Virus genome (UHGV): UHGV-0108399
Source: a virus
Length of the DNA stretch: 34,947 bases
Reading direction: 5' to 3' (one strand)
Part shown: positions 1,835 to 15,132 of the stretch, one piece after another
Layout: each line of letters starts with the position of its first letter
Position numbering within the stretch: position 1 is the stretch's first letter
Made by a program: the position numbers and the translations under genes
Notes under the pieces: model-generated
Databases searched by the model: none
What the model saw: the letters and a program-made list of their open reading frames with translations, nothing else
Told to the model about the DNA's origin: nothing

Positions 1835-1862
1835 AAAAAACCGCCATCAGGCGGTTTGGTGT
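1835..1862 (-). terminator. Intrinsic terminator-like hairpin with T-run (AAACCGCC-TGAT-GGCGGTTT-TTTTATT)
   Basis: Perfect 8-bp stem and 4-nt loop followed by T-run on the minus strand; overlaps the stop codon of the small ORF 1847..2014. Confidence 0.5.
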
Positions 1863-2014
1863 TCTTTCAGTTCTTCAATTCGAATATTGGTTACGTCTGC
1901 ATGCGCTATCTGCGCCCATATCATCCAGTGGTTATAGCAGTCGTTGATGTCCTCTGCTTCGATAACTCTGTTGAATGGTTCTCCATTCCATTCACCTGTG
2001 ACTCGGAAGTGCAT
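1847..2014 (-). CDS. Small hypothetical protein (55 aa, MHFRVTGEWNGEPFNRVIEAEDINDCYNHWMIW...)
   Basis: Hand-translated ORF below the track size cutoff; GGAG RBS 7 nt upstream of ATG; TGA stop lies in the loop of the terminator hairpin. Confidence 0.35.
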   Translation of the reverse strand: MHFRVTGEWNGEPFNRVIEAEDINDCYNHWMIWAQIAHADVTNIRIEELKEHQTA

Positions 2015-2132
2015 TTATCATCTCCATAAAACAAAACTCGCCGTAGCGAGTTCAGATAAAAGAAATCCCCGCGAGTGCGAGGATTGTTATTCATTGCCGA
2101 TATTCACCTTTATCGCGAACATCTTTACCGGT

Positions 2133-2375
2133 TTATCTCCTTTGCATAGCACGTAATTTTTTCAGATGGTTCTCCTGTTCTGTTTCAGCCAGGATCTGGT
2201 GATATTCTCTGTGATCAATGTGTTCGAATAAATTATTGAATTTTCTGATGCACACTCTTCCAGGATAGCCATCCATCCTCTTGAAGAATACTGAGTGATC
2301 AGTACTACGAATGATTTTTACTGGATAGCCAGCGCTATCGGTGTATATCTGACCACGTTGAATCAGAGAGAACAT
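2133..2375 (-). CDS. Hypothetical protein (80 aa)
   Basis: Track ORF in the leftward early operon; no recognisable domain. Confidence 0.45.
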   Translation of the reverse strand: MFSLIQRGQIYTDSAGYPVKIIRSTDHSVFFKRMDGYPGRVCIRKFNNLFEHIDHREYHQILAETEQENHLKKLRAMQRR

Positions 2376-2441
2376 TCGTTTATCCCCAGATAAAAATATA
2401 GCAATACCAATTACATAAAATACTTCAGGCCAAGCATCATT

Positions 2442-3089
2442 TCACCCCTGCGGCGGTTCTGGCAGCGGCATCCAGTGTGATGGTATCCACGACGCACCAG
2501 GTATTACCCACCCATCATTAGCGTCAGGATGCCCCGGGATGTAAGTCGCCCATTTCATTCGCCAGTCACCTTTCCTGTCAAACTCCCTGGCAACAAGAAC
2601 GGCTGTTTTGGTATCCGGCATTCGCTCACTACAGCTTATCCAACCATCCGGAGTTACCGGATAGTTGCCAGCCAGCTCGTTCAACTTGTAAGTCTGGCTT
2701 ACAGGTTCGGCACCATGAAGCATGGCGGCACGGCAGGCATTCCAACCATCAACATAATCAAACGTATTGCCATCGTCTGGCTCGATTTCATCCGGCACTA
2801 CCGGCGCTGGTTGGGCGGTGACGTTGGAAAAGGCAGCACGCAACCCTGTCTTAATTTCCTCTACCTCATCAGCGCCTGGCGATGAATCTGACAGTGCGTG
2901 ATGGAATGCGTAAGCCATGTCGTCGTTGATTTCTACAGGCACACTATCAGCTTTGCGACGCTCCTGTAGCTCGCGCAGAGCCGCTGCAACATAATGACTA
3001 TTGTGCTGGTCAGCCCACAGAATGAGCCGAATCAACGTTGCATTTGAAACGTATTCGTCTGTTAGTTTGCTATTGGTAAAAATGGTCAT
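2442..3089 (-). CDS. DUF551-domain protein (Eaa-like early accessory protein)
   Basis: 215 aa; C-terminal W-rich region (WISCSERMPD ... WRMKW ... WMPLPEPP) resembles the DUF551 signature of lambdoid Eaa proteins; start overlaps the stop of the upstream gene (ATGA). Confidence 0.6.
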   Translation of the reverse strand: MTIFTNSKLTDEYVSNATLIRLILWADQHNSHYVAAALRELQERRKADSVPVEINDDMAYAFHHALSDSSPGADEVEEIKTGLRAAFSNVTAQPAPVVPDEIEPDDGNTFDYVDGWNACRAAMLHGAEPVSQTYKLNELAGNYPVTPDGWISCSERMPDTKTAVLVAREFDRKGDWRMKWATYIPGHPDANDGWVIPGASWIPSHWMPLPEPPQG

Positions 3090-3601
3090 GCCGCGTTTCC
3101 TTCTTTCTTATTAACAATTACACCGTCATATATTTCATTAAGGTGCCCTCTCAACTCCATGCGCCTTAATGCAGATAACATGTAATCGCATTCAACCTGC
3201 TTATTTCCAGTAAATGGCTTATCGTCAGGATTACCCCAACAGCAATTACCCTTGGGCCACCCATGTACTTTCCGTACTCTTCCGTTAACAACGTGAAGTA
3301 ATCCCCAGCCAGGTGGTAAATCCTCAATTGAAATAATTCCCGGCTCACTAATAAAGAATCGCCAGTCGCCCATTCCAAGAGACGGATTTTTACGAAAACG
3401 CTTTTTTCTATCTGCCAACAAGTCAGCACGAGAACATTTCGCCTCTATCAGGCATGATGCTGAATTTCTGAATCCCATAGCATCTGGCTGTTCTCCGGTA
3501 CTGGTTACAGCTATAAAGCGGTCATGAAAACAAACCTTGAACCCGTTGCGCTTAAGGAACTTGTACGCAATCTGACAGAGTTCGCGGTGTGTTAGCGCCA
3601 T
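3086..3601 (-). CDS. Putative PD-(D/E)xK-fold nuclease-like protein
   Basis: 171 aa; motif GEQPD ... CLIEAK matches the PD-x(n)-(D/E)xK arrangement of restriction-endonuclease-fold nucleases; translationally coupled to flanking genes. Confidence 0.45.
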   Translation of the reverse strand: MALTHRELCQIAYKFLKRNGFKVCFHDRFIAVTSTGEQPDAMGFRNSASCLIEAKCSRADLLADRKKRFRKNPSLGMGDWRFFISEPGIISIEDLPPGWGLLHVVNGRVRKVHGWPKGNCCWGNPDDKPFTGNKQVECDYMLSALRRMELRGHLNEIYDGVIVNKKEGNAA

Positions 3602-3602
3602 A

Positions 3603-3842
3603 TCACTCTCCTTTGATGCCAGTGTTTAGAACCTGACAAGCCTCTTTGAGCACCCAGTCAACAGCGTCTTTCCATGCTCCGGTTTCGGCTGGCGGATTCT
3701 CACGTTTTACCTGCTCATAGAAGCGCACTGCTTGAACCAGTCCTTCCGGCACTACTGGCGATGGCTGTTTAGCTTCTAAATCAGCAATTCTGTCAACCAC
3801 GGCATCGACAAGCTCTCTGTTAGTCATTCTTTTTCCGCTCAC
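3603..3842 (-). CDS. Hypothetical protein (79 aa, GTG start)
   Basis: Track ORF; start overlaps the stop of the upstream gene (GTGA). Confidence 0.45.
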   Translation of the reverse strand: MSGKRMTNRELVDAVVDRIADLEAKQPSPVVPEGLVQAVRFYEQVKRENPPAETGAWKDAVDWVLKEACQVLNTGIKGE

Positions 3843-4342
3843 TGGTTGCCTCCTTTGCGAAGCTCTGCAGCGAAATATACAGCTGCGGAAACAATAGCTG
3901 CATGTCGGTATTCACCATCAGAAAATAAAGAATCTCCCTTAAGTGCATTGACGATACTCTGATGATTTTTTGCCAGCATCTCCACGCCCTGCGCCCGTAC
4001 TTCAGCCAGAAAAGCATCGGTGGCGGGGGTGTCTGATTGCAGAGACTTTGCGCGATAGTCATTCCACCCTCTTGCATACATGTGATTAACTTGCACTCCA
4101 TCTTTTACGCAATATGCCTGCCCTCCACGGTTGATAACCTTGATTTCGTCCATAGCGCCAGACTTCAGCCCCGCATTCTCCGCTGCCAGCGCCGCGCACT
4201 TGGCCTGCGCTTCAGCAAATTTACGCACCAGATATTCAGCGTTTGTTTCGTTAACCTTTAAATCACTTGGGATGCATTTACCTTTCAGGAATCCATCCAT
4301 CTCAATTAGTGACATTTGTTTCATTTCTTCCCACTCCGCCAC
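3839..4342 (-). CDS. Hypothetical protein, coiled-coil N-terminus (possibly Ead/Ea22-like)
   Basis: 167 aa in the early-left accessory region; family assignment is a guess from composition and position. Confidence 0.5.
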
Positions 4343-4485
4343 ATCGCATTCAGATATTTGTTTTGATTTACTGATGGAAAAGAATTTCTCTTAAGCAATT
4401 CCTCTCTCGATGGCATTGGCTTTACGCGTTGGCGAATAATCATTTCTGCCGGAAGAATGCCGGGATTGTATGCAAGTCCTCTCAT
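4321..4485 (-). CDS. Small hypothetical protein (55 aa, [34 protein letters not shown]...)
   Basis: Internal ATG of track ORF 4321..4635 with GAGGA RBS, located just after the stop of ORF 4496..4789; the upstream part of the track ORF overlaps that gene in another frame. Confidence 0.3.
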
Positions 4486-4495
4486 GGTAAATTCC

Positions 4496-4789
4496 TCAGT
4501 CATTACTGATAGCGCCATAGCGTGAGCGGTAATTACGCAGGCGCGGGTCAATTTCAGGGAAGTGGGTATATGTGGCTTTGCGGAATGGTCGGATTGATGT
4601 CTGGTAAATTCGCTCGCGTTCTTCTTTCTCTGCAAGCCATATACAATGGCGAAATTCCTTTTCCTCTTTCGTTTCCTGCGGTAGCGACATTATCCGGTTG
4701 TAGTTTTTCCTGAATTTATCCAGCACCTCCGATACGGAATTGCCGGAACAGCGGCGCGCGTCATCCGCACCATACAGAGGCGCTGGCAT
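4496..4789 (-). CDS. Hypothetical protein, 97 aa; possible Abc2-like anti-RecBCD protein
   Basis: Strong RBS AGGAGAAAATC-ATG; lies immediately downstream of the recombination module (ssb, SSAP), the position and size of P22 abc2. Assignment is by synteny and size only. Confidence 0.5.
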
Positions 4790-4802
4790 GATTTTCTCCT
4801 GA

Positions 4803-5309
4803 TTAAATTGCGTGAATAGCGTGACGAGGGAAGGGGAGAGTTACTGGTGCAAAGGGTATATCGTCGTCAAAATCCATCGGAGGTTCGTTGTGTTGTGCTG
4901 GTGATGATTGCTGCTGTGGCTTCTGTGATTGCCTGCTGGCTGCTTGTTGTTTGCTGTCGCCAATGCCGCCAAGCATTTGCATCACGCCATTAATTCCGAC
5001 ATGAACCTCGGTTGTGTAACGGTCTTGCCCTGACTGGTCTTTCCACTTTCTGGTTCTCAGCATTCCCTCGAAATAAATCTGATCACCTTTTTTCACATAC
5101 TGCCCCACGACCTCAGCCAGTTTCCCGGATACAGCAACACGATGCCATTCAGTCAATTCCTTTTGCTCGCCAGTATTTTTATCTCGCCATTGTTCTGACG
5201 TGGCTATTGTCAGGTTAGCGAACGCTGTTCCTGATGGTGAGTATCGAACTTCCGGGTCTTGTCCTACCCGACCAAGGATAATCACCTTATTTACGCCTCT
5301 GCTTGCCAT
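4803..5309 (-). CDS. ssb: Single-stranded DNA-binding protein (SSB) with 15-aa extension after the DDDIPF tip
   Basis: OB-fold N-terminus ([36 protein letters not shown]), Q/S-rich linker, conserved [11 protein letters not shown] followed by [15 protein letters not shown] before the stop. Confidence 0.85.
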
Positions 5310-6017
5310 TTATGCCGCCTGTTTTAGTTCGTTAACTCTGATGTTCATTACCTGAACGCATTTAGCCTGCGCCTCCTCGTTGCCAGCCATTAATTGCCAG
5401 TCACGCTGATAACGCTCGATGAGTTTTTTCTTGTCAGTTTCTGTTGACGCATAATCGCTGAAGTCTTTCAGGATTTGTTCGCAGTCAACCGATGGAGATT
5501 TCTGGTTGGTATTTTCTGGTGATGGTTTGTTATCTGATGCTGGGATTGCCCATCCCGGCAGCGATGGAGGGAGCCAGCAAAATCCTGTTCCATCCTTCAG
5601 TTTTGCCCTGTGCCACCCCTGCTTTTTATCGAGAGATGTTTGTGCGAAACCTTCCTCAAGGTTATACAGATACCGACCGATTCCCCACTGAACGGCAGCA
5701 CGCTTCATTGCACCTGAACGACCACCTTTGACGGCTTCTACCTGCGTGTTTTCAGCAGCATCCCATTTGGTTACCCATTCGGAATCAATCTTGATTGATA
5801 TGCCGCATTCAACTCCGCCGTTGTTGGGAATATCGCGGTATTCATTGCGCCATCCTGCTTTGCCGCAAACATCGTCCAGGCGTTTCATGATTGCCCTGTT
5901 CGTGACATAAGCCAGCACCATAGCCCACACCTTTCCATCGCGTGTTTTACCGCTTTGCTGTATTCGCCATTCGATATCTTCAGGGCTGAATGGCTCATCG
6001 AATTTGTTCAAATCCAT
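5310..6017 (-). CDS. Rad52/22-family single-strand annealing recombinase (SSAP)
   Basis: 235 aa; conserved core (VECGISIKIDSEWVTKWDAAEN ... AMKRAAVQWGIGRYLYNL) resembles the Rad52/22 phage recombinase family; sits between kil/cIII and ssb where lambda has bet and P22 has erf. Confidence 0.65.
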   Translation of the reverse strand: MDLNKFDEPFSPEDIEWRIQQSGKTRDGKVWAMVLAYVTNRAIMKRLDDVCGKAGWRNEYRDIPNNGGVECGISIKIDSEWVTKWDAAENTQVEAVKGGRSGAMKRAAVQWGIGRYLYNLEEGFAQTSLDKKQGWHRAKLKDGTGFCWLPPSLPGWAIPASDNKPSPENTNQKSPSVDCEQILKDFSDYASTETDKKKLIERYQRDWQLMAGNEEAQAKCVQVMNIRVNELKQAA

Positions 6018-6025
6018 AATTCACC

Positions 6026-6214
6026 TCAGAATGGTAATTCGGATGGGGAGGAAAGAAATTCGCGCTCATTCATGCGCTCTCTTTGTGCTTGCCATAAACA
6101 AAGTTGTTTCTTTGATTTATCTCCCGCTTTACGCCAGTAACGAGCCTCAGCAATGTGATACTCTCTTTTTAATCGACTTAACTCTGGGGTTTTCGCCAGT
6201 TCTACCGTAATCAT
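6026..6214 (-). CDS. Small hypothetical protein (62 aa; track ORF has an alternative start at 6226)
   Basis: GGAGG RBS before internal ATG; ATGA overlap with the kil-like stop; its TGA stop lies in the RBS of the recombinase gene. Position matches P22 arf, but no similarity is claimed. Confidence 0.4.
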   Translation of the reverse strand: MITVELAKTPELSRLKREYHIAEARYWRKAGDKSKKQLCLWQAQRERMNEREFLSSPSELPF

Positions 6215-6324
6215 TTTGACCTCCATTTTCTGTAGGCTTCGATGGCCTCACGAAACATCTTTTCATCGCCAATAAAAGTGGCGATAGTGAATTTAGTCTG
6301 GATAGCCATAAGTGTTTTATCCAT
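6211..6324 (-). CDS. kil: Kil-like host cell-division inhibitor (37 aa)
   Basis: MDKTLMAIQTKFTIATFIGDEKMFREAIEAYRKW matches my recollection of the lambda Kil N-terminus; ATG overlaps the cIII stop (ATGGATAA). Confidence 0.6.
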   Translation of the reverse strand: MDKTLMAIQTKFTIATFIGDEKMFREAIEAYRKWRSK

Positions 6325-6457
6325 TTTTGGGAACTCCTGGCTGATTAAGTACGTCGATGAGTCGTTTCCATCCGTCACGTAATTTACGGGTGATTCGTTC
6401 AAGTAAAGATTCGGAAGGGCAGCCAGCAACAGGCCACCCTGCAATGGCATATTGCAT
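6317..6457 (-). CDS. cIII: cIII (FtsH/HflB protease inhibitor), 46 aa
   Basis: Hand-translated, not in the track (<60 aa, different frame from track ORF 6211..6450): MQYAIAGWPVAGCPSESLLERITRKLRDGWKRLIDVLNQPGVPKNG, near-identical to the lambda cIII core; RBS TAAGGAG. Confidence 0.8.
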   Translation of the reverse strand: MQYAIAGWPVAGCPSESLLERITRKLRDGWKRLIDVLNQPGVPKNG

Positions 6458-6529
6458 GGTGTGCTCCTTATTTATACATAACGAAAAACGCCTCGAGTGA
6501 AGCGTTATTGGTATGCGGTAACGCCGCGC

Positions 6530-6898
6530 TCAGGCGGCTTTGATAGTCATATCATCTGAATCAAATATTCCTGATGTATCGATATCGGTAATTCTTATTC
6601 CTTCGCTACCATCCATTGGAGGCCATCCTTCCTGACCATTTCCATCATTCCAGTCGAACTCACACACAACACCATATGCATTTAAGTCGCTTGAAATTGC
6701 TATAAGCAGAGCATGTTGCGCCAGCATGATTAATACAGCATTTAATACAGAGCCGTGTTTATTGAGTCGGTATTCAGAGTCTGACCAGAAATTATTAATC
6801 TGGTGAAGTTTTTCCTCTGTCATTACGTCATGGTCGATTTCAATTTCTATTGATGCTTTCCAGTCGTAATCAATGATGTATTTTTTGATGTTTGACAT
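6530..6898 (-). CDS. Hypothetical protein (122 aa), acidic C-terminus
   Basis: Track ORF between cIII and sieB/N with GAGGA RBS; no confident family assignment. Confidence 0.5.
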   Translation of the reverse strand: MSNIKKYIIDYDWKASIEIEIDHDVMTEEKLHQINNFWSDSEYRLNKHGSVLNAVLIMLAQHALLIAISSDLNAYGVVCEFDWNDGNGQEGWPPMDGSEGIRITDIDTSGIFDSDDMTIKAA

Positions 6899-6915
6899 CT
6901 ATTCATATCCTCACA

Positions 6916-6944
6916 GATAAAAAATCGCCCTCACATTGGAGGGC
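6916..6944 (-). terminator. Intrinsic terminator in the pL operon (tL-like): GCCCTC-CAATGT-GAGGGC followed by GATTTTTTATC
   Basis: 6-bp GC stem followed by a T6 run on the minus strand, between the sieB/N region and ORF 6530..6898. Confidence 0.55.
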
Positions 6945-7158
6945 AAAGAAGATTTCCAATAATCAGAACAAGTCGGCTCCTGTTTAGTTACGAGCGACAT
7001 TGCTCAGTGTATTCACTCGTTGGAATGAATACACCGTGCAGTGTTTATTCGTATGCCTGTCTTTTAACCACATCAGGCTCGGTGGTTCTCGTGTACCCCT
7101 ACAGCGAGAAATCGGATAAACTCTATTCACCCCTACAGAGAGCAAAAGAGAAACGCCG

Positions 7159-7740
7159 ATGAACAACTCATGGTGGCAGGAACTAATGCATTTTTTCCTG
7201 CAAGGAATGACACTTAAACAGTTGATTCATATGCTAATCATCCTGATCATATTGATTATTGTTATGCCGGTAAGCGTAAAAGAATGGATAAACCTGCATA
7301 ATCCAGAAATCCTTCCTCATTACTGGATGTATTACATCCTGTTGTTTTGCGTTAGCTATGTGCTTAACGGCGTTGTTAATTCCGCTTATCACGCTGTGAC
7401 TGAAAGAATTGAGGTATTCGCTGCTCAGAAGCGCAAATCTAAAGAAGAGAAATACGTGCAAGATTTGTTTGATTCGTTAACTCTTGGAGAAAGAGCGTAT
7501 TTGGCACTCGCTGTAGTCGCTAATAACCAGCTACAAACGGAAAAGGGAAGCCCTGAAGCAATCTCATTGCTCGAAAAAGGGCTTCTTATTCGGATACCTT
7601 CTGCTACTGGATATCCTGAAATCGACCGTTTTGTTATCCCAGAACGCTATAGAAATGAGTGCTACATTAGGTTTGCTGGGAAGAAAGACAGTCTTATGGA
7701 TGAACTTATCGCTCAGGATAAGCACGGCAAAAACAAGTAA
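7159..7740 (+). CDS. sieB: Superinfection exclusion protein B (SieB)
   Basis: 193 aa; N-terminal MNNSWWQELMHFFLQGMTLKQLIHMLIILIIL... with transmembrane segments, matching lambda SieB as I recall it. Confidence 0.8.
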   Translation: MNNSWWQELMHFFLQGMTLKQLIHMLIILIILIIVMPVSVKEWINLHNPEILPHYWMYYILLFCVSYVLNGVVNSAYHAVTERIEVFAAQKRKSKEEKYVQDLFDSLTLGERAYLALAVVANNQLQTEKGSPEAISLLEKGLLIRIPSATGYPEIDRFVIPERYRNECYIRFAGKKDSLMDELIAQDKHGKNK

Positions 7741-7756
7741 TTAGCAAATTAATTTA

Positions 7757-8140
7757 TCATCTCGCCGTCAGTTGTTTTGATTTCCGGTAGCCTGCCGCGT
7801 AAATGGCTACGTTTGGAAGACATACACCAGTTTCTGGTTGCTTATGTCCAAACTCATTCGCGTACACAATGGCCGCTCGCTCCAGATTGCGTCTGTATTC
7901 TTTCTGTTGCCAGATCACGTCCTGTGCCATGAACTTAATTGGCTTAGCGTCTTCTATGCGCTCAGGCGTTTCGTGAGTACCTTTAGCCTGAATCTGCGCT
8001 CTGCTTAGAGTAGGGCGGTGTAATACTTCTGAACTTATTGCTTCTTCGCGGGCCAGTACGCCGTTAGCTAATGCCTTTGCCTTTAAACGCTCACGACGAC
8101 GAGAACGTGAATTGCCTTTGAACTGAGTTCTGCGTGTCAT
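7757..8140 (-). CDS. N: Antitermination protein N (P22 gp24 / phage 21 N type)
   Basis: Arginine-rich motif near N-terminus (GNSRSRRRERLKAKALANG), C-terminus AIYAAGYRKSKQLTAR; AGGAGG RBS; first gene downstream of pL and nutL. Confidence 0.75.
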   Translation of the reverse strand: MTRRTQFKGNSRSRRRERLKAKALANGVLAREEAISSEVLHRPTLSRAQIQAKGTHETPERIEDAKPIKFMAQDVIWQQKEYRRNLERAAIVYANEFGHKQPETGVCLPNVAIYAAGYRKSKQLTAR

Positions 8141-8305
8141 ATAGACCTCCTGATGAACTTTGGTGGTGTGGTAGGTGGGAGACCCATTTCGACCTGTTTC
8201 GGCCTACTTCAATTCGGCAATAGTCCCGCAGGCCTCGCCGCTTTACGTGCGACATATTCCCGTCCATGAACCCTTCACTACACCCCAAAGTTCACTTTGG
8301 TTATT

Positions 8306-8320
8306 GCGCTTTGTCAGCGC
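8306..8320 (-). promoter_or_regulatory. nutL boxB hairpin (GCGCTGACAAAGCGC, P22-type GACAA loop)
   Basis: Transcribed-strand sequence is a 5-bp stem with GACAA pentaloop, identical in core to the boxB found downstream of cro; no canonical boxA seen next to it. Confidence 0.6.
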
Positions 8321-8388
8321 CGTAGATTCATATTCGAATCGTTGTATATTCACCGCCATGGTGAGTAGTGCGTCCTGCTGATGGCTAA

Positions 8389-8417
8389 ATAGTACGATGT
8401 GTACTTTATTGAGTCAA
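8389..8417 (-). promoter_or_regulatory. pL promoter (-35 TTGACT, 17-nt spacer, -10 TACTAT) overlapping OL operator palindromes
   Basis: Read on the minus strand; the spacer contains the perfect palindrome AGTAC-N5-GTACT (8391..8405); an imperfect second site lies at about 8416..8430. Confidence 0.55.
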
Positions 8418-8480
8418 TACAAAATGTTCTAAATATGGTTGGTTTTTTATAACACTTTGTATTTTATTGATTTATATTTT

Positions 8481-8512
8481 GGAAAAAGAAAACCCGACGC
8501 TAAGGTCGGGTT
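8481..8512 (-). terminator. Intrinsic terminator downstream of cI (AACCCGAC-loop-GTCGGGTT followed by TTTTCTTTTT)
   Basis: 8-bp stem followed by a T-rich run on the minus strand, about 30 nt after the cI stop. Confidence 0.5.
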
Positions 8513-8542
8513 ATTGTTGTGTGTTTTAGAGTGGTGATGCTG

Positions 8543-9202
8543 TTAACTAAATGTCTCTTCAGGCCACTGGCTGGCGATAACTTTCCCTACTACGGAACAG
8601 CTATCATTGCATGGGATCATTGGATATTGCGGGTTTAGTGGTTGTAGGAACACCTGACCGCTATCCCTGATCAGTTTCTTGAAGGTAAACTCCTCACCAC
8701 CAAGTCTGGCTATGCAGAAATCACCTGGCTCAACAGCCTGCTCAGGGTCAACGAGAATTAACATCCCGTCAGGAAAACTTGGCTTGGATCCTGTTGGTGC
8801 GGTCATGGAATTACCTTCAACTTCAAGCCAAAACGCACAATCACTGGCTTTTTTGGTTGTGCTGACCCATCTCTCCGCATCACCTTTGGTAAAGGTTCTA
8901 AGCTCAGGCGAGAACATCCCGGCCTGAACATGAGAAAAAACAGGGTACTCATATTGTTTTTTTACGGGGGCAGATGAGTATTCGCCAACAGGTGAAAATG
9001 TACCGTCGTGGTTGAATGAGACGTTATCAATACCAAGGTATTTAAACACCACACCAATCTCGTCAAGAGATGGATGACGAGATCCGCGCAACCAGTGACC
9101 AATTCCACCCTGCGTCATACCAAGCTCTTCAGCTAACTTCTCTTGAGTTATGCCGAGCTCTTTCATTCTGGATCTAGCCAGTTCATACCATTTCATTTTC
9201 AT
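8543..9202 (-). CDS. cI: CI-type prophage repressor (HTH N-domain + LexA/S24-like C-domain); start at 9202 or 9196
   Basis: C-terminal domain near-identical to the lambda cI C-domain ([39 protein letters not shown] ... [11 protein letters not shown]); N-terminal HTH ([27 protein letters not shown]) is not lambda-like. The track ORF start at 9277 lies in the operator region; AAGGA RBS supports 9202/9196. Confidence 0.85.
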
Positions 9203-9211
9203 ATCCTTATT

Positions 9212-9287
9212 ATTACGCTCTGTACTAAAACCATCCATGCACAAGATGTATTTTTTGTTTGCATTCCAAGAGTACATATCGTATTAT
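9212..9287 (+). promoter_or_regulatory. OR operator region with pR promoter (-35 TTGCAT 9259..9264, -10 TATTAT 9282..9287)
   Basis: Candidate operator palindromes at 9212..9226 (ATTAC-N5-GTACT), 9238..9252 (weak) and 9271..9285 (AGTAC-N5-GTATT); the last sits in the pR spacer. Divergent pRM not precisely mapped. Confidence 0.5.
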
Positions 9288-9313
9288 TGTTTCATGGTTA
9301 CTATGGAGGGCAT

Positions 9314-9529
9314 ATGAGCAACCTACGAAAATATCGAGAGTCACTGAATATCTCTCAAACAACCCTTGCTAAGGCGGTTGGATGCACACAGGGGGCTATC
9401 GGACATTGGGAATCTGGTCGTCGCTTCCCAGACCTTAAAACATGCCGTGCTCTTGTTGCGTGCCTAAACAAGTTAGGCGCAAAAGTCAGTCTTGATGACG
9501 TGTTCCCGCCGGAACACCAAGCCGCTTAA
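9314..9529 (+). CDS. cro: Cro-like repressor (HTH_XRE type, 71 aa)
   Basis: MSNLRKYRESLNISQTTLAKAVGCTQGAIGHWESGRRFP...; GGAGGG RBS; recognition region resembles the cI N-domain (TQG-IGHW). The track ORF 9143..9529 is an upstream extension across OR. Confidence 0.8.
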   Translation: MSNLRKYRESLNISQTTLAKAVGCTQGAIGHWESGRRFPDLKTCRALVACLNKLGAKVSLDDVFPPEHQAA

Positions 9530-9539
9530 TAAGCGGATC

Positions 9540-9585
9540 CGCTCTTTTCACAATGGACATTCGTCCTACGTCGCTGACAAAGCGA
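9540..9585 (+). promoter_or_regulatory. nutR (boxA CGCTCTTT at 9540..9547; boxB CGCTGACAAAGCG at 9572..9584)
   Basis: boxA-like octamer followed about 24 nt later by a boxB hairpin identical to the nutL boxB core; immediately downstream of cro. Confidence 0.65.
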
Positions 9586-9670
9586 GTCCCAAGATATCTG
9601 ACCAACTAAGGCCATATGTGTTTCCACGCATACCTTTCAACTAACTATTCACTAATGGAAATATTAAGAA

Positions 9671-9967
9671 ATGACACAAGCAAGTTACAGCAAGCCAACA
9701 CAGCGAGAAATTGATCGCGCTGAAACTGATTTACTCATCAACCTGTCAACGCTTACCCAGCGCGGTCTGGCAAAGATGATTGGCTGTCATGAATCGAAGA
9801 TAAGCAGAACGGACTGGAGATTTATTGCTTCGGTCTTGTGTGCTTTCGGAATGGCATCAGACATCAGTCCGATTAGCAGGGCTTTTAAGTATGCGCTTGA
9901 TGAAATCACAAAGAAAAAATCCCCGGCCGCCACCGAGGATTTTAAGCAAATTGATATGCAATTCTGA
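9671..9967 (+). CDS. cII: CII transcriptional activator
   Basis: 98 aa; HTH region and C-terminus ([18 protein letters not shown]) resemble lambda cII (KKRPAATERSEQIQMEF). Confidence 0.8.
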
Positions 9968-9999
9968 GGGAATTACTGGATCAATCCACAGGAGTAATT

Positions 10000-10146
10000 A
10001 TGACAAAACAACTCAGTCCTTACCAGGACAAAATTCACAAACACATACTACGTGATCGCTTCCTGTCCAGCTTCAAGCAGCCTGGTCGATTCCGGTCTGA
10101 GTTGGAAAAAGTGAAGCTGATGCAGAAGGAGAAAGGTCATGAGTAA
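10000..10146 (+). CDS. Small hypothetical protein (48 aa) between cII and O
   Basis: Hand-translated ORF ([48 protein letters not shown]) with AGGAG RBS 6 nt upstream; 3' end overlaps the start of the O-like gene. Confidence 0.3.
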
Positions 10147-10999
10147 TATTGCAACCGTAACACATTTAAGGCCTTCACAACGGCCTGTGGAGCGTCGTGT
10201 GGCAGAAGTTGAAGATGGTTATACCCGTCTTGCAAATGCCCTGTATGAAGAGCTTATCGGCGCAGATTTAACGAAAAATCAGAGCAAGGTTGCCCACGCC
10301 ATATGCCGTAAAACATACGGCTACGGTAAAAAGATGGATCGCATCTCTGATAGTCAGTTAGCTCAAATTACCAGGCTGCCAAGACAGAAGGTAAACAAGG
10401 CCAAGAATGAGCTTATCGCGATGAAGGTAATCCTTCGCGAAGGCCAGCAAATCGGGCCTAACAAGAACATCGAGGAATGGCAAATCGAAGGGTGTCACTA
10501 CTCTGGTGATAATGTCACTGCATTGGTGACAAAAAGTGTCACCAAAACGGTGACAGCGCTGTCACCAAAACAGGGACACACAAAAGAAACTATTACAAAA
10601 GAAAAAAGAAATAATAAAAACACTATGTCCGAAAGTGTTCGGACGGAGTGTGAAAAATCATCTGACCGTCACGAAGAAACCGACAAGGCATTCGAGGAAA
10701 TATTCTGGTGTGCAGGCATGCGGAAAGCCGGGAAGAAAAACGCAGCTTCAGCATTCAGAACACAGTTCAGGGAATGGCGTAAAACTACCAGGGGTACGGC
10801 AAGCGAGTTTGCCACGATGCTGGCAGAAGACATCGCATGCAGGAATGGTAAGCAGTTCGGATTCGACAGGTTGTTACCATCGAGCTACCTGAACGGTCAG
10901 CGCTGGAACGACGAAAAGCCAGAAACCATTCAACCACAATCCAAACCATCATCCGCAATCACCGTATCGAAAACTGGCTACGTGTTTTTCGACAGGTGA
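10139..10999 (+). CDS. O: Replication initiator, lambda O-like N-terminal domain
   Basis: N-terminal ~110 aa ([56 protein letters not shown] ... GPNKNIEEW) resembles the lambda O N-domain; C-terminal half is unrelated to lambda O. Confidence 0.8.
10504..10620 (+). repeat. Putative replication origin: GGTGAC / GTCACC iteron palindromes followed by an A-rich segment, inside the O-like gene
   Basis: GGTGATAATGTCAC, GGTGACAAAAAGTGTCACC and GGTGACAGCGCTGTCACC in tandem, then AAAAGAAACTATTACAAAAGAAAAAAGAAATAATAAAAA; architecture matches ori-lambda. Confidence 0.55.
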
Positions 11000-11106
11000 A
11001 CCATGAAATCAAAAATCAAATCGTTACTGGCCGCTGGTTATAACCACGGCTGGTTAAGTATTTCGTTTGTCGATTTCTGGTTTAAAAATCTCAATCTGAG
11101 GGAATC

Positions 11107-12987
11107 ATGACGCCAAGTGAACTTAGCGACCTGCTTTGGGCGCAGGTTGACAGGGTGGCTCCGCACCTGTTGCCAAACGGCAAGAAAGAGGGGCATGAGT
11201 GGGTTGCCGGTAACGTCAACGGTGACAAGGGAAACAGCCTTAAGGTCAACCTTAGCGGCAAGAAAAAATGGGCTGATTTCGCTGAGGGAGACGGCGGTGA
11301 CATGCTTGATTTGTGGATGGCATGTCGTGGAATTAACCTGCATCAGGCTATGCAGGAAGCGAAAGCCTTTCTCGGAATCAAGGATGACGATCACCATTTC
11401 GATGCCAAACGTGAGAAGAAATTCTCCAGACCTGACCGCAAGAAAATCGCCCGCTACGTTACCAGAACAGAATCCCATCTTGAGTACCTGCAATCGCGTG
11501 GCATATCGCCAGAAGTCGTAAAGCGCTACGAGGTTGTCAGCGGCAAGGTGTGGAATGGAGAACGAGAACTTGATGCACTGGTGCTTCCGTACAAACGCGA
11601 TGGTGAGTTGTTGCAGGTCAAGCGAATCAGCACTGAGCGCCCGGACGGGAAGAAAGTCATTATGGCAGAAGGTGATTGCGAACCTTGTCTGTTCGGATGG
11701 CAGGCTCTGGACGCTGGCGTGAGGGCGGTTGTACTTTGCGAAGGCGAAATTGATTGTATGAGCTATGCGCAATACGGCATCTCGGCGTTATCCGTGCCGT
11801 TTGGTGGCGGGAAAGGCGCTAAGCAACAGTGGATTGAGTTTGAGTATCACAACCTCGACAGGTTTGAGGAAATATTCATCTCGATGGATGTTGATGATGT
11901 TGGTCGTGAAGCCGCAAGGGAAATCGCAAGCCGACTCGGTGAACATCGTTGCCGTCTTGTTACTCTGCCGTACAAAGACATCAACGAATGCCTGATGAAC
12001 GGTGTTACCGAGGATGAAATCTGGCAGTACATCGGCACGGCATCCTACTTCGATCCTGAAGAACTCTACAGCGCGCGAGAGTTTTACCAGGACACTATCA
12101 ACGCTTTCTACGGCAAGCAGCAGTATCTGTTTAATCCACCGTGGGAATCTCTGGCAGATAAATTCCAGTTCCGTGAGGCAGAGTTGACGCTGGTCAATGG
12201 TGTGAACGGTCACGGAAAAACGGAGGTTGTCGGGCATATGGCACTTGAGGCAATGCGTCAGGGTGTGAAGACGTGCATCGCGTCACTTGAGCTGAAGCCT
12301 GGTATTCTCCTTAAGCGACTTACCCGTCAGGCAACGTGCTGCAAGATGCCGCCAGTGCTGGAAATTGACTCTGCATTTAAATTTTATGACGAAAGACTCT
12401 GGGTGTTTGGCCTGACCGGAACGGCGAAAGCCGACAGGCTGATCGAAATATTCGACTACGCTCGCCGCCGATACGGCATCCAGTTATTCATCATCGACAG
12501 CCTGATGAAATGCGGCATAGGTGACGATGATTATAACGGGCAGAAAGCATTTGTTGACTCGATTTGCGACTTCAAAAACAAAACAAACTCCCACGTCATT
12601 CTCGTTACTCACTCGCGAAAAGGAGACAGCGAAGAAAAACCAACCGGGAAAATGGACGTAAAAGGCTCTGGAGCGATAACAGACCTGACAGACAACCTTT
12701 TCATCATCTGGCGTAACAAGGCTCGCGAGAGAGCGTTACAGAGAGTTCAGAGTGGTGAAAAGATGTCAGAGAAGGACGAACAGCTACTGGCATCTCCGGC
12801 ATCTGTTTTGATGCTTGAAAAACAACGTAACGGCGAAGGTTGGGAAGGTGGCGTCCCGTTGTTCCTTGACGAGCAATCGCACCAGTTCCTGCAACTTGAA
12901 TCAGGATCGCCATATAGCTACATCGCCAATATGCCGAAATCGGAATATGACGAGGCGTGGCGACAGGAAAACGTGACGGAGTATTAA
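11107..12987 (+). CDS. Bifunctional primase-helicase (DnaG-like TOPRIM + SF4 DnaB/T7 gp4-like helicase)
   Basis: 626 aa; TOPRIM motifs (VVLCEGEIDCMSYAQ; ISMDVDDVGREAA); helicase Walker A NGVNGHGKTE and Walker B LFIIDSLMK; N-terminal region looks like a cysteine-poor relic of a primase zinc-binding domain. Confidence 0.8.
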   Translation: MTPSELSDLLWAQVDRVAPHLLPNGKKEGHEWVAGNVNGDKGNSLKVNLSGKKKWADFAEGDGGDMLDLWMACRGINLHQAMQEAKAFLGIKDDDHHFDAKREKKFSRPDRKKIARYVTRTESHLEYLQSRGISPEVVKRYEVVSGKVWNGERELDALVLPYKRDGELLQVKRISTERPDGKKVIMAEGDCEPCLFGWQALDAGVRAVVLCEGEIDCMSYAQYGISALSVPFGGGKGAKQQWIEFEYHNLDRFEEIFISMDVDDVGREAAREIASRLGEHRCRLVTLPYKDINECLMNGVTEDEIWQYIGTASYFDPEELYSAREFYQDTINAFYGKQQYLFNPPWESLADKFQFREAELTLVNGVNGHGKTEVVGHMALEAMRQGVKTCIASLELKPGILLKRLTRQATCCKMPPVLEIDSAFKFYDERLWVFGLTGTAKADRLIEIFDYARRRYGIQLFIIDSLMKCGIGDDDYNGQKAFVDSICDFKNKTNSHVILVTHSRKGDSEEKPTGKMDVKGSGAITDLTDNLFIIWRNKARERALQRVQSGEKMSEKDEQLLASPASVLMLEKQRNGEGWEGGVPLFLDEQSHQFLQLESGSPYSYIANMPKSEYDEAWRQENVTEY

Positions 12988-13016
12988 ATGACCATCTACA
13001 TCACTGAGCTTGTAAC

Positions 13017-13048
13017 AGGCCTGCTGGTAATCGCAGGCCTTTTTATTT
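13017..13048 (+). terminator. Intrinsic terminator after the primase-helicase gene (AGGCCTGC-loop-GCAGGCCT followed by TTTTTATTT)
   Basis: Perfect 8-bp GC-rich stem followed by a T-run on the plus strand. Confidence 0.6.
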
Positions 13049-13063
13049 GGGGGAGGGTAAATC

Positions 13064-13270
13064 GTGGCTGAGTTAATTTTCTCTGCATTGAGGATTCTCG
13101 GTGCTATGTGGATGGTGGTGACGTTCATTGTGGTTGCCAGCAGTTTTATCCGGTTGGTGGGTGAAGGTAAAGACATGGTGGGTGTGCTTTTCGGTAGCAT
13201 TCTCATGTGGGTGATTATCGGTGTTGCGCCTGTCGCTGTAGCAAAAATGGCGTGGCGTTTTGTGAGTTGA
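13064..13270 (+). CDS. Small hydrophobic membrane protein (68 aa, two predicted TM helices, GTG start)
   Basis: GGGGGAGGG RBS 7 nt before GTG; sequence almost entirely hydrophobic (ILGAMWMVVTFIVVASSF ... VLFGSILMWVIIGVAPVAVA). Confidence 0.45.
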   Translation: MAELIFSALRILGAMWMVVTFIVVASSFIRLVGEGKDMVGVLFGSILMWVIIGVAPVAVAKMAWRFVS

Positions 13271-13287
13271 ACTGATGGTAAGTACCG

Positions 13288-13665
13288 ATGGACGAATCAA
13301 GAAAGCAGTTTGAAGAAAGTTGGTTGCGACGTGGTGGCGAATCTTCAGACCTTATCCGTTACCCTGAAAATCACCATGAAATTGGCAGCGGTAATATTGG
13401 TGGTCAATACGTGATGGACGATGTTCAAGGCCACTGGCAAACGTGGCAGGCATCACGAGCAGCTATTGAACTGGATATCGACTGGCCCGAATCGAATGAC
13501 GACTTTTGGAAAGATGGTGAAGAAGGTGCTTATGCGATGGGTTATGAGGATGGGAGAGACAAAACGGTAATTGCAGTAATGAAAGCTATCAGAGCCGCTG
13601 GAATTAAAGAGAAGAATTTCGATGAAGCAAATATACATACTTCGCAACGAAGCAATCAGAAATAA
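13288..13665 (+). CDS. Hypothetical protein (125 aa)
   Basis: Track ORF upstream of ninB, overlapping its start by 44 nt. Confidence 0.45.
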   Translation: MDESRKQFEESWLRRGGESSDLIRYPENHHEIGSGNIGGQYVMDDVQGHWQTWQASRAAIELDIDWPESNDDFWKDGEEGAYAMGYEDGRDKTVIAVMKAIRAAGIKEKNFDEANIHTSQRSNQK

Positions 13666-14068
13666 CGCCATAGACGCCATTCTCTCACTACCCATCGACG
13701 AAAAGTCACCCCACGAAGTCCACGTTAGAGAACCCAAACGCAGCAAAGCGCAGAATGACCGTATGTGGCCGATGCTGAACGATGTTTCGCGTCAGGTGCT
13801 ATGGCATGGTCAACGGCTGGCGCCGGAAGACTGGAAAGACCTGTTCACTGCCCTGTGGCTTAAGACCAAAAAACTGGAGCAACGAAGTGTTCCTGGTATC
13901 GACGGTGGCGTTGTCATGCTTGGCGTGCGTACCAGCAAAATGCGAAAGGCCAGCATGACTGAGCTTATCGAAATCATGTTCTGGTTCGGCTCAGAGCGCA
14001 ACGTGCGGTGGAGTGATGACTCCCGGCGAGAGTATGAATGGTCACAACGAAAAGGGAGGGCGGCATGA
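13622..14068 (+). CDS. ninB: NinB (Orf-family recombination mediator)
   Basis: 148 aa; conserved segments ([19 protein letters not shown] ... WKDLFTA ... SERNVRWSD) resemble lambda NinB. Confidence 0.8.
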
Positions 14069-14247
14069 GACGACAGCGACGAAGTTTCACCGACATAATC
14101 TGCGAAAACTGCAAATACCTTCCAACGAAACGCTCCAGAAACAAACGCAAGCCAATCCCAAAAGAATCTGACGTAAAAACCTTCAATTACACGGCTCACC
14201 TGTGGGATATACGGTGGCTTAGAGAACGTGCGAGGAAAACAAGGTGA
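14065..14247 (+). CDS. ninE: NinE-like small basic protein (60 aa)
   Basis: [60 protein letters not shown]; GGAGGG RBS; ATGA overlap with the ninB stop. Nin-family name is from memory and may be the wrong member. Confidence 0.5.
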
Positions 14248-14414
14248 TTGACCCAAATCGAAGTTACGAACAAGAAAGCGTCGAGCGGGCTTTAACGTGC
14301 GCTAACTGCGGTCAGAAGCTGCATGTGCTGGAAGTTCACGTGTGCTCCGATTGCTGCGCAGAACTGATGAGCGATCCGAATAGCTCAATGTACGAGGAAG
14401 AAGACGATGAATGA
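14244..14414 (+). CDS. Small Cys-rich protein (56 aa; CxxC ... CxxCC), NinF-like
   Basis: Hand-translated: (V)[55 protein letters not shown]; GTGA overlap with the upstream stop; 3' end overlaps the start of the Rha gene. End coordinate approximate. Confidence 0.4.
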
Positions 14415-15132
14415 GTTAATAAATGGCAATGCCATCAAAATGACAAGCATTGAAATCGCTGAGTTGGTAGAAAGTCGCCATAGCAATGTAAAAGTATCCA
14501 TAGATAGATTGGTGAAACGTGGCGTTATCAAGCCTCCTGCATTGCAGCACACTAACATAATCAATGATTTAGGTGTTATTACCGGGAAGCGTGATTTCTA
14601 CGTCTTCGAAGGCGAACAAGGAAAGCGAGACAGTATTGTCGTTGTAGCCCAGTTGTCGCCGGAATTCACCGCTCGTCTTGTTGACCGTTGGCGAGAGCTT
14701 GAAGAAACTGCGGTTAATATCCCCAAAACGCTACCAGAAGCGTTGCGCCTTGCTGCTGATCTTGCTGAGCAGAAAATGCAACTGGAAAACCAGCTCGCAA
14801 TTGCCGCACCTAAAGTTGAGTTTGCCGATCGAGTTGGCGAGGCCAGCGGAATTTTGATTGGAAACTTTGCAAAGGTTGTTGGAATTGGTCCAAACAAACT
14901 GTTTGCGTGGATGCGCGATCACAAAATCCTTATTGCTTCAGGTTCCCGGCGCAATGTGCCAATGCAGGAATATATGGATCGCGGCTATTTCACAGTGAAA
15001 GAAACAGCGGTCAACACAAATCACGGAATACAGATATCGTTCACCACAAAAATCACCGGACGTGGTCAACAGTGGCTGACCAGAAAGCTGCTCGATAACG
15101 GAATGCTGAAAGTAACAGGGGAGGCTGCTTAA
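14407..15132 (+). CDS. Phage regulatory protein Rha / antirepressor (Rha N-domain + KilA-C/ANT C-domain)
   Basis: N-terminal IEIAELVESRHSNVKVSIDRL... resembles Phage_pRha; C-terminal FAKVVGIGPNKLFAWMRDHKIL... resembles the KilA-C antirepressor domain. Confidence 0.7.
   Translation: MNELINGNAIKMTSIEIAELVESRHSNVKVSIDRLVKRGVIKPPALQHTNIINDLGVITGKRDFYVFEGEQGKRDSIVVVAQLSPEFTARLVDRWRELEETAVNIPKTLPEALRLAADLAEQKMQLENQLAIAAPKVEFADRVGEASGILIGNFAKVVGIGPNKLFAWMRDHKILIASGSRRNVPMQEYMDRGYFTVKETAVNTNHGIQISFTTKITGRGQQWLTRKLLDNGMLKVTGEAA

Follow-up and report, generated by a model that had tools for sequence, protein, structure and literature searches.

What kind of immunity region lies at positions 8389-9313 of virus genome UHGV-0108399, and does it represent a new specificity? 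An earlier note on this DNA had read it as a chimera in which a lambda-type cI C-terminal domain (CTD) is fused to an N-terminal domain (NTD) unlike lambda's, with a Cro that matches the NTD and palindromic operators in both pL and pR. Within the window, that is, the whole stretch of 34,947 nucleotides that was analysed, every one of these details was confirmed. The chimeric repressor is real, but it belongs to an ordinary and already known immunity type. Very probably, the region serves a P22-like lambdoid Escherichia coli prophage as its primary lysis/lysogeny switch and is of the VT2-Sakai/Stx2-II/Nil2/2851 type ('cI2c/cro4'). The genes and transcript features of the region are the following.

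7757..8140, minus strand: N antiterminator gene, first of the pL operon (Pfam N_peptide, E=2.1e-15; annotated N in the near-identical MB46 prophage)
8350..8383, minus strand: lambda-like pL transcript leader (blastn to lambda 35550-35583, 85% identity)
8491..8512, minus strand: intrinsic terminator right after cI, lambda tIMM-like (terminator scan)
8543-9202, minus strand: cI open reading frame, with its start ATG at 9202 or, alternatively, 9196
8543..8953, minus strand: C-terminal part of cI, comprising the cleavage site and the lambda-type Peptidase_S24 oligomerisation/autocleavage domain (identity to lambda cI, Pfam)
8954..9202, minus strand: N-terminal HTH_3 DNA-binding domain of cI plus linker, VT2-Sa/Nil2 type (Pfam, Stx-phage identity)
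9314-9529, plus strand: cro, a 71-residue all-helical HTH_3 Cro (Pfam HTH_3; paralogue of the cI NTD)
9671..9967, plus strand: cII (Pfam Phage_CII, E=4e-33)

Comparing the two cI domains separately with lambdoid repressors, a check that the earlier note had named, gave a lambda-type CTD and an NTD of VT2-Sa/Nil2 type. Pfam assigns residues 11-58 to HTH_3 (E=8e-11) and residues 87-209 to Peptidase_S24 (E=9e-29). The CTD is, as claimed, nearly that of lambda cI: 132 of 135 residues (97.8%) are identical, and blastn aligned window 8549-8953 with lambda 37233-37637 at 94.1% identity over 405 bp. This DNA homology stops abruptly inside the inter-domain linker (junction 8953/8954). The DNA-binding domain is indeed unlike lambda's; it yields a local alignment of 29 residues with 12 identities, and blastn against lambda detected no DNA similarity in it. 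Similarly, phmmer against the PDB found residues 85-219 almost identical to the lambda repressor (3bdn, 8gmu); upstream of these residues, in the N-terminal part, the alignment was only weak. The cleavage and catalytic motifs VQAGMF, GNSMT, and FKKL align identically with the same structures, and the protein has the Ala-Gly cleavage site and Ser/Lys dyad of autocleaving repressors of the LexA/lambda-cI type. From the 97.8% CTD identity, RecA-stimulated self-cleavage of the window CI is to be expected.

The NTD is 100% identical to that of phage phi458 and 96% identical to those of Stx-phage cI proteins (78/81 residues for AP005153; 96.3% by tblastn for 1717, the PA series, and Stx2a phages), with all differences from the latter outside the recognition helix. 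A protein homologue search with the 83-residue N-domain returned 12 short fragments and no full-length partners; partners of the C-domain were surveyed by tblastn against phage records. Unrelated NTDs of at least three types are found joined to the lambda-type CTD, namely those of lambda, the window, and S137. In S137, a CTD 81.5% identical to that of the window is joined to another NTD and accompanied by other operators. Conversely, SEN22 combines an NTD and operators of the window type with an S24 CTD of another kind (50% identical). These two phages directly show modular exchange of repressor domains.

It could be argued that the lambda-like CTD reflects vertical descent under strong purifying selection, with no recombination between phages. 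All lambdoid repressors have homologous S24 domains, and those of SEN22 and S137 retain the identities just given. However, the lambda DNA identity becomes undetectable past a sharp linker boundary, the NTD/operator/Cro module of the window also accompanies the 50%-identical CTD of SEN22, and one CTD type is found with several NTD types. Furthermore, other lambda-like patches flank nonhomologous segments in a classic mosaic pattern: the pL leader, which forms the left edge of the immunity-specific segment; the tIMM region (window 8485-8520 versus lambda 35799-35834, 89% by blastn), with rexAB absent between cI and the terminator; and a further short patch at the end of cII (blastn). We therefore regard vertical descent as very improbable and favor recombination within the linker.

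The earlier note had also stated that the recognition segment TQG-IGHW is common to the cI NTD and a small HTH Cro, which agrees with the 35% identity of Cro and the NTD across 62 residues (E=6e-13) and the presence of the segment in both recognition helices. Cro is 98.6% identical to the Cro of VT2-Sakai, 2851, and the PA series. It matches only Pfam families of the HTH_3 type, not the alpha+beta fold of lambda Cro, and among solved structures the HTH protein 28tn_A is nearest to it (E=5e-17). The predicted folds of cI and Cro are fixed by sequence identity to solved lambda CI and by the Pfam assignments. The cro gene starts just beyond the segment originally delimited as 8389-9313.

The control sequences on either side of cI are listed below, with no strand given for the operators. 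The first reading had named only the strongest sites; there are three candidate operators per side.

8389..8417, minus strand: pL promoter, TTGACT-17-TACTAT (promoter scan; position upstream of N)
8390..8406: OL1 TAGTACGATGTGTACTT, with perfect palindromic half-sites (exact motif; one central base differs from VT2-Sa OL1 TAGTACGATATGTACTT)
8415..8431: OL2 CAATACAAAATGTTCTA, overlapping the pL -35 (motif with two mismatches; half-sites identical to VT2-Sa OL2 CAATACAATTTGTTCTA)
8448..8464: OL3 TATAACACTTTGTATTT (counterpart of VT2-Sa OL3 TACAACGCTTTGTATTT)
9207..9237, minus strand: putative pRM, -35 TGGATG and -10 TAATAA (AP005153 'putative maintenance promoter' mapped over; geometry read from the sequence)
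9211..9227: OR3 TATTACGCTCTGTACTA, overlapping the putative pRM core (exact motif; 16/17 bases as in VT2-Sa OR3; AP005153 'putative operator')
9237..9253: OR2 ATGCACAAGATGTATTT, centered about -43 from the putative pRM start (counterpart of VT2-Sa OR2 ATGCACAATGTGTATTT; AP005153 annotation)
9258..9287, plus strand: pR promoter, TTTGCA-18-TATTAT (promoter scan)
9270..9286: OR1 GAGTACATATCGTATTA, within the pR spacer/-10 (exact motif; counterpart of VT2-Sa OR1 AAGTACATATTGTATTT)

The palindromes proposed for the pL and pR spacers, A(G/T)TAC-N5-GTA(C/T)T, were found there as exact matches, at 8391-8405 in the pL spacer/-10 and at 9271-9285 in the pR spacer/-10 according to the promoter scan. The motif AKTACN5GTAYT has five exact matches in the window against 0.12 expected (~40-fold), a count that none of 100 shuffles reached; the site at 8391-8405, as a perfect palindrome, is counted on both strands, and the others are at 9212-9226, 9271-9285, and 7319-7333. 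The six operators share the general form A-N-T-A-C N5 G-T-A-N-T. Among their twelve half-sites, the A at position 5 and the C at position 6 are invariant, and position 2 is A in 11. Spacings are 33 bp for OR1-OR2, 26 bp for OR2-OR3, 25 bp for OL1-OL2, and 33 bp for OL2-OL3. OR2 has a poor left half-site (TGCAC), and the CAC...TGTATT of this operator is conserved in PM43 and SEN22; about 24 bp from OR1, where an OR2 with lambda-like spacing would lie, the sequence holds no plausible half-sites. Neither OL nor OR contains lambda half-sites, whose window-wide count is at chance level (9 versus 6.3 expected).

Each of the six published VT2-Sa operators has its own counterpart in the window, and the half-sites agree with those of VT2-Sakai at 58 of 60 bases. 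The AP005153 annotation places three operators, pRM, and pR at matching positions. Relative to the more diverged PM43, the OR footprint keeps 27/30 half-site bases, compared with 5/15 in the spacers and 29/66 in other intergenic DNA (Fisher p=3.6e-6). With OL and OR combined, the values are 51/60 for half-sites and 77/152 for spacers and flanks (p=2e-6), although the OL footprint alone is not significant (p=0.07). Half-sites also change together with the protein. The recognition helix TQGAIGHW of SEN22 and PM43 goes with operators ATTAC/AGTAC...GTATT, and the helix SRLGNYE/SRIGNYE of S137 and CurroJimenez goes with ATCAC-N5-GTGAT; by this comparison of sequences, operator specificity co-varies with the recognition helix. 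The window, SEN22, S137, and CurroJimenez make up a clean natural two-by-two case of repressor domain shuffling at the linker.

Could the palindromes instead be coincidences of AT-rich promoter regions, with the repressor binding elsewhere? No report of direct binding by the cognate CI or Cro to these sites turned up in the literature searched, and the published EMSAs used lambda CI only, with weak, micromolar binding (PMC10742460). One exact copy of the motif (7319-7333) also lies in sieB, away from promoters. We considered this copy as an extra operator and rejected it; it encodes HYWMYY, which is kept along with the protein in SEN22, so that chance combined with coding constraint explains it more simply. 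Against coincidence stand the enrichment, the location of the sites in the pL and pR cores, the retention of half-sites in PM43 amid diverged spacers and flanks, and their switch together with the recognition helix in S137 and CurroJimenez. In addition, the same sites emerged from the independent predictions of three groups, and a related phage, epsilon34, has the operator consensus WTACRAWWTGTAT (PMC2629481). Coincidence is thus highly unlikely; the palindromes are supported as predicted operators by their enrichment, their overlap with promoters, their conservation in diverged relatives, and their identity with the VT2-Sa set.

The whole cI-OR-cro unit corresponds end to end to the immunity region of VT2-Sakai/Sp5, Stx2-II, the Stx1 phage AP005153, Nil2, 2851, and 1717; several P22-like coliphages have it too, with DNA identities of 95-97%. 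Against phage records, tblastn found the window-type NTD at 95% identity or more in 63 and the window-type Cro at 95-99% in 64. At least 80% of the module is held by 768 of 5,426 complete E. coli genomes (~14%). Window 8380-9540 is 100% identical to a prophage of E. coli MB46; equating the whole window with that prophage was rejected, as the two are collinear (99.5%) only at 6917-14506 and the remainder is mosaic. The proposal that modules of different phages had recombined is therefore upheld as to domain exchange, which SEN22 and S137 display, but not as to the novelty it implied. The earlier note had named an end-to-end match of the whole protein to one well-known immunity type as refuting its reading, and such a match exists: the repressor, its Cro, and the full set of six operators belong to the VT2-Sakai/Stx2-II/Nil2/2851 type. 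This match makes the chimera old and widespread rather than false.

For the 'cI2c/cro4' immunity region of Stx phages, the sources are Fattah 2000, Sato 2003, and Smith 2012. A lambda-like C-domain with a distinct N-domain was already described in PMC3430580, PMC2629481, and PMC4587872 (Smith 2012, 'cI2c/cro4'; Villafane 2008), and the same chimera by Fattah 2000, as cited in PMC10742460. The authors of the epsilon34 study predicted its specificity to be distinct (PMC2629481). Decay of the module into a nonfunctional remnant is the least probable reading of all: the cI genes of VT2-Sakai, where a stop codon interrupts it, and PM43 are split in their records (PMC3430580), but the window cI is an intact frame that retains every catalytic and cleavage residue and matches, exactly or almost so, the cI of phi458, 683R2, Louie, and Dewey, phages that have been isolated and form plaques. 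The window also has the P22-like genes in full (int, N, replication, nin, lysis, and head genes).

Among named systems, the closest overall are vB_EcoP-683R2, vB_EcoP-720R6, Louie, Dewey, and phi458, which have an equally compact layout and 95-97% DNA identity across OL-cI-OR-cro; they differ from the window by point differences only, whereas flanking early-left and replication genes differ in mosaic fashion. The Stx phages (VT2-Sakai/Sp5, Stx2 converting phage II, AP005153, Nil2, 2851, and 1717) match the cI of the window at 96% (NTD) and 97% (CTD), arrange pR and pRM in the same way, and have a similar cII. Their ~7% DNA divergence falls mainly in operator spacers and inter-operator DNA; OL3 has ATAAC in the window and ACAAC in VT2-Sa. 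In the window, cI is followed directly by terminator and OL; in the Stx phages, ~1.5 kb of cargo genes occupies that slot. The Salmonella P22-like phages SEN22/PM43, L, epsilon34, g341c, and SPN9CC share the N-domain family at 52-54% identity overall. Here SEN22 has the identical helix TQGAIGHW, and SEN22/PM43 have the TAC-N5-GTA operator core and a 69% identical Cro, but their CTD (50% identity) is of another S24 lineage.

Like lambda, the window has three OL and three OR operators, divergent pRM and pR, and an OR2 ~42-43 bp upstream of the pRM start, with acidic residues in cI at the positions of lambda's positive-control patch. Unlike lambda, its NTD is 20 residues shorter and of another type, its operators are A-N-TAC-N5-GTA-N-T rather than TATCACCGC-type (the region is not imm-lambda), its Cro is an HTH_3 paralogue of the repressor, its operators are 25-33 rather than 20-24 bp apart, and it lacks rexAB. 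With 434 and P22 c2/Cro it shares a small all-helical HTH_3 Cro paralogous to the repressor N-domain, with which this Cro has its recognition helix and operators in common, yet across the systems the sequences are distant (NTD versus 434 and P22 c2, E>0.2; Cro versus P22 c2, E ~0.01) and the operator sequences differ.

From these likenesses we infer how the switch may operate, including binding itself and any order of affinity among the operators. CI dimers would use their HTH_3 N-domains to bind six operators of 17 bp, three in OL (8390-8464) and three in OR (9211-9286). Occupancy of OL1/OL2 would block pL and that of OR1 would block pR, while CI at OR2 would activate cI transcription in a lambda-like manner, yielding a near-leaderless cI mRNA from pRM, and OR3 would serve negative autoregulation. 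Dimerisation, together with cooperative and higher-order contacts, would come from the lambda-type C-domain; lambda-style pairwise cooperativity is an assumption here, because the operator spacings differ from those of lambda. After DNA damage, self-cleavage at Ala-Gly via the Ser/Lys dyad, stimulated by RecA, would induce the prophage, and in lytic growth Cro would bind the operators of CI. The chimera itself very probably originated by recombination in the linker, an ancient and widely disseminated event that is not specific to the window.

Given the near-lambda C-domain, the different DNA-binding domain, and the prevalence of the module in E. coli, mixed dimers or oligomers with lambda-type CIs in polylysogens, and hence heteroimmune cross-talk, are conceivable but on balance unlikely. 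If they form, they could cause negative dominance, co-induction, or partial lambda/VT2-Sa cross-immunity, the last of which has been attributed, as cited, to Fattah et al. 2000. Similarly doubtful is the separate idea that the switch has a geometry unlike that of lambda; if true, C-domain cooperativity would act at 25-33 bp spacings, with mirror-image OL and OR, despite identical contact surfaces.

The chimeric repressor, Cro, and operators have been published since 1999-2003 and are annotated in GenBank records, and for this reason the region carries little weight as a discovery. Its genome is that of a P22-like podovirus without stx. Of some practical use is the finding that stx-negative P22-like prophages carry an intact immunity of the Sp5/VT2-Sakai type, which is very common in E. 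coli. Strains with the module should be immune to Stx2 phages of this class, a prediction that matters for the spread of Stx phages and for toxin induction in polylysogens.

Gene order and orientation from N to cII follow the canonical lambdoid immunity layout, and the genome that carries this region is P22-like over the whole window. The features of the region, together with the left end of the genome, are as follows (HTH_3, N_peptide, Peptidase_S24, and Phage_CII are domain names; OL and OR, left and right operator regions).

1-1161, minus strand: integrase-sized open reading frame of 386 aa at the left end of the window
7159-7740, plus strand: sieB, superinfection exclusion
7757-8140, minus strand: N (Pfam N_peptide)
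8350-8383: lambda-like patch, pL leader
about 8389-8464: OL/pL segment
8417..8389, minus strand: pL, TTGACT-17-TACTAT (promoter scan)
8485-8520: lambda-like patch, terminator after rexB (lambda 35799-35834)
8491-8512, minus strand: intrinsic terminator after cI, found in the promoter scan step
8543-9202, minus strand: cI (Pfam HTH_3, residues 11-58; Peptidase_S24, residues 87-209)
between cI and cro: OR, intergenic, about 110 bp
9258..9287, plus strand: pR, TTTGCA-18-TATTAT (promoter scan)
9314-9529, plus strand: cro, 71 aa (HTH_3)
9671-9967: cII (Phage_CII)
9906-10007: lambda-like patch, end of cII

Our results confirm that the repressor is chimeric, as the earlier note had proposed. Residues 85-219 of cI match lambda repressor at nearly every position in a phmmer search of the PDB (3bdn, E=8e-96; also 8gmu, 2ho0, 1kca, and 1f39), and in a domain-wise comparison the C-terminal domain (CTD) is identical to that of lambda at 132 of 135 positions, while the N-terminal domains (NTDs) align only locally, with 12 identities over 29 residues. 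At the DNA level, window 8549-8953 matches lambda 37233-37637 with 94.1% identity, and this homology ends sharply within the linker, ~10 codons before the Ala-Gly cleavage site. That site is retained, as are the catalytic-dyad Ser and Lys. By a hand count from the alignments, the only substitutions relative to lambda are S139C, D187E, E217D, and G236S (lambda numbering). Because none of these falls at the cleavage site, Ser149, or Lys192, RecA-dependent induction and oligomerization would be expected of this CTD.

The recognition segment was also correctly seen to be shared with Cro: the cI NTD and Cro are 35% identical over 62 residues (E=6e-13), have TQG(G/A)IGHW in common, and are paralogues. 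Residues ~40-71 of Cro, its C-terminal half (window 9431-9526; …LNKLGAKVSLDDVFPPE..AA), are conserved in the Cros of phages SEN22, CurroJimenez, and S137, despite differing recognition helices and operators, and in a solved "lambda repressor-like protein" (PDB 28tn_A, E=5e-17). This pattern suggests a dimerization module common to otherwise heteroimmune Cros.

The palindromes noted in the pL and pR spacers proved to be strongly enriched. AKTAC-N5-GTAYT has five exact matches in the window (the perfectly palindromic OL1 match at 8391-8405 being counted on both strands) against 0.12 expected, a number reached in 0 of 100 shuffles; four of the five lie inside OL or OR, and the copies at pL and pR fall within the spacer/-10 of those promoters. 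The sites originally named are thus real, but they are only the strongest of a set of three candidate operators per side. This set pairs one-to-one with six VT2-Sa operators published as oligonucleotides.

Published VT2-Sa operators and the corresponding window sites (PMC10742460 Table S1)
OR1: published AAGTACATATTGTATTT; window GAGTACATATCGTATTA
OR2: published ATGCACAATGTGTATTT; window ATGCACAAGATGTATTT
OR3: published TATTACGCTCTGTACTG; window TATTACGCTCTGTACTA
OL1: published TAGTACGATATGTACTT; window TAGTACGATGTGTACTT
OL2: published CAATACAATTTGTTCTA; window CAATACAAAATGTTCTA
OL3: published TACAACGCTTTGTATTT; window TATAACACTTTGTATTT

In addition, record AP005153 annotates three "putative operators" in OR, along with pRM and pR, and these operators map to window 9211-9227, 9237-9253, and 9270-9286. 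OL1-3 and OR1-3 have likewise been tabulated for Sakai-type phages (Yin et al. 2015, PMC4587872). The twelve half-sites yield the consensus (T/A)A-N-T-A-C, in which positions 5 and 6 are always A and C, position 2 is A in 11, and position 4 is T in nine. Operator centers lie at 8398, 8423, and 8456 in OL and at 9219, 9245, and 9278 in OR, giving spacings of 25 and 33 bp and of 26 and 33 bp in a mirror-image arrangement, where the closely spaced pair at OR is OR2-OR3 rather than OR1-OR2. Spacing in lambda is 20-24 bp, compared with 25-33 bp here, even though the cooperativity domain is nearly identical. The fifth exact motif copy (ATTACTGGATGTATT, 7319-7333) lies within sieB and is kept in the sieB of SEN22 (SEN22 locus 123-137). 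It encodes HYWMYY, so a coding constraint combined with chance probably accounts for it, although a real CI/Cro site is conceivable.

Because no measurements of cognate CI binding turned up in our literature search, we tested the operator assignment comparatively. The Cros of Salmonella phages PM43 and SEN22 are 69% identical to that of the window. The SEN22 repressor combines an NTD of the same family (54% identity over 63 residues; recognition helix TQGAIGHWLNG) with an S24 domain that shares only 50% identity with the lambda type. At homologous positions in OR and OL, these two phages carry ATTAC-GAGAT-GTATT, CACAC-ATATT-GTATT, AGTAC-GAAAT-GTATT, and two copies of AATAC-AAAAT-GTACT. Between the window and PM43, OR half-sites are conserved at 27 of 30 positions, against 5/15 in central spacers and 29/66 in other intergenic sequence (Fisher p=3.6e-6). 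The corresponding values for OL are 24/30, 8/15, and 35/56 (p=0.07), and the combined p is 2e-6. Substitutions avoid half-sites among close relatives too, with 29/30 conserved in both OR and OL of VT2-Sakai. The converse case is Salmonella phage S137, in which a lambda-type CTD (81.5% identity to the window, 83% to lambda) is joined to a different NTD (30% identity) and OR contains sites of the form ATCAC-N5-GTGAT, and the CurroJimenez_Bas106 repressor joins an S137-type NTD (64% identity) to a SEN22-like CTD (62%). Across the compared phages, differences in the recognition helix go with differences in half-site sequence. Taken together, these comparisons show that NTD, operators, and Cro travel as one specificity module, with the S24 domain swapped independently at the linker. 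They support both the predicted operator assignment and the proposal that this immunity was recombined from modules of different phages.

The positions of the operators point to how the switch could work. Of the OL sites, OL1 falls in the pL spacer/-10 and OL2 overlaps the pL -35; at OR, OR1 falls in the pR spacer/-10, OR3 overlaps the core of the maintenance promoter pRM annotated in AP005153, and OR2 adjoins the pRM -35 hexamer TGGATG (9237..9232). With TAATAA (9215..9210) as its -10, pRM would start at or beside the A of ATG 9202. The cI mRNA would then be leaderless, like that of lambda, and OR2 would be centered near -43, matching the activation geometry of lambda; by our own reading of the PDB alignment, HTH helix 2 has acidic residues at the lambda E34 and D38 positions. 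A second ATG at 9196, with AAGGA upstream at a proper distance, could serve transcripts of an upstream promoter, e.g., pRE. Either ATG 9202 (leaderless) or ATG 9196 is the likely start of cI. PGAP (RefSeq, E. coli MB46 prophage) and AP005153 place the start 12-14 codons further upstream (window 9203-9238), giving 231 aa. Their start codon falls within OR2, on the upstream side of the inferred pRM, and probably extends the gene too far; phage 683R2 cI is annotated as the 217-aa form.

In addition to the CTD, resemblance to lambda occurs in three short patches that frame the specificity module (pL leader, terminator, and end of cII). In window 8485-8548, the distance from the cI stop to the tIMM-like terminator patch is only 28 nt, and rexA and rexB are absent, whereas lambda has 1.4 kb containing both genes (35799-37232). 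VT2-Sakai carries about 1.5 kb of unrelated genes in this slot (VT2-Sakai locus 435-1228) and epsilon34 carries others; the slot between cI and its terminator behaves as a moron insertion site. Elsewhere, the window encodes nin and lysis genes, a toprim primase/helicase, an antirepressor, and head genes resembling those of IME10/APC_JM3.2. Site-specific integrases are among the best E. coli matches to 1-7200. Collinearity with the MB46 prophage, whose immunity region is 100% identical, is confined to 6917-14506 (99.5%); the left arm (1-6916) and late region (14507-34947) have their matches elsewhere, among prophages and phages (IME10, APC_JM3.2), which is typical P22-like mosaicism. In the nin region, a 241-aa open reading frame (14407-15132, plus strand) is about 96.6% identical to an MB46 "phage antirepressor KilAC domain-containing protein," directly upstream of which MB46 has a truncated Rha-family regulator gene. 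This putative antirepressor could offer an induction route independent of CI cleavage.

The immunity type itself is already known, being widespread, published, and annotated in GenBank. Smith et al. (2012, PMC3430580) assigned a "cI2c" repressor to VT2-Sa, Stx2 II, YYZ-2008, and 1717, described it as ~100% identical to lambda CI at the carboxy terminus with the lambda amino terminus unique, and named the Cro "cro4." Fattah et al. (2000), as cited in PMC10742460, likewise reported that the homology of the VT2-Sa and lambda repressors is high in the C-terminal part and low in the N-terminal part. Villafane et al. (2008, PMC2629481) grouped the NTDs of L, VT2-Sa, and Nil2, pointed out that in epsilon34 such an NTD is coupled to a protease domain like that of lambda, and proposed the operator consensus WTACRAWWTGTAT. 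A megablast of window 8100-9700 matched 231 phage records. Specifically, cI-OR-cro-cII (8543-9693) is 92.9% identical to Nil2, Stx1 converting phage AP005153, Stx2 phage II, 2851, and the O157:H7 "PA" Stx2a phages, and OL-cI-OR-cro is 95-97% identical to the P22-like coliphages 683R2, 720R6, Louie, Dewey, and phi458. For the NTD, identity is 96.3% to phage 1717, the PA series, and Stx2a phages and 100% to phi458; for Cro, it is 98.6% to VT2-Sakai (Sp5), with Cros of 95-99% identity in 64 phage records. At least 80% of window 8380-9540 is found in 768 of 5,426 complete E. coli genomes. The cI genes of VT2-Sakai (locus 1730-2425) and PM43 (locus 1219-1924) are each recorded as two coding sequences, through a nonsense mutation or frameshift; those of the window and SEN22 are intact. 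No lambda-type operators are present in OL or OR of the window, and the immunity is therefore not imm-lambda. Rather, the window carries VT2-Sakai/Nil2-type immunity on a stx-negative P22-like prophage.
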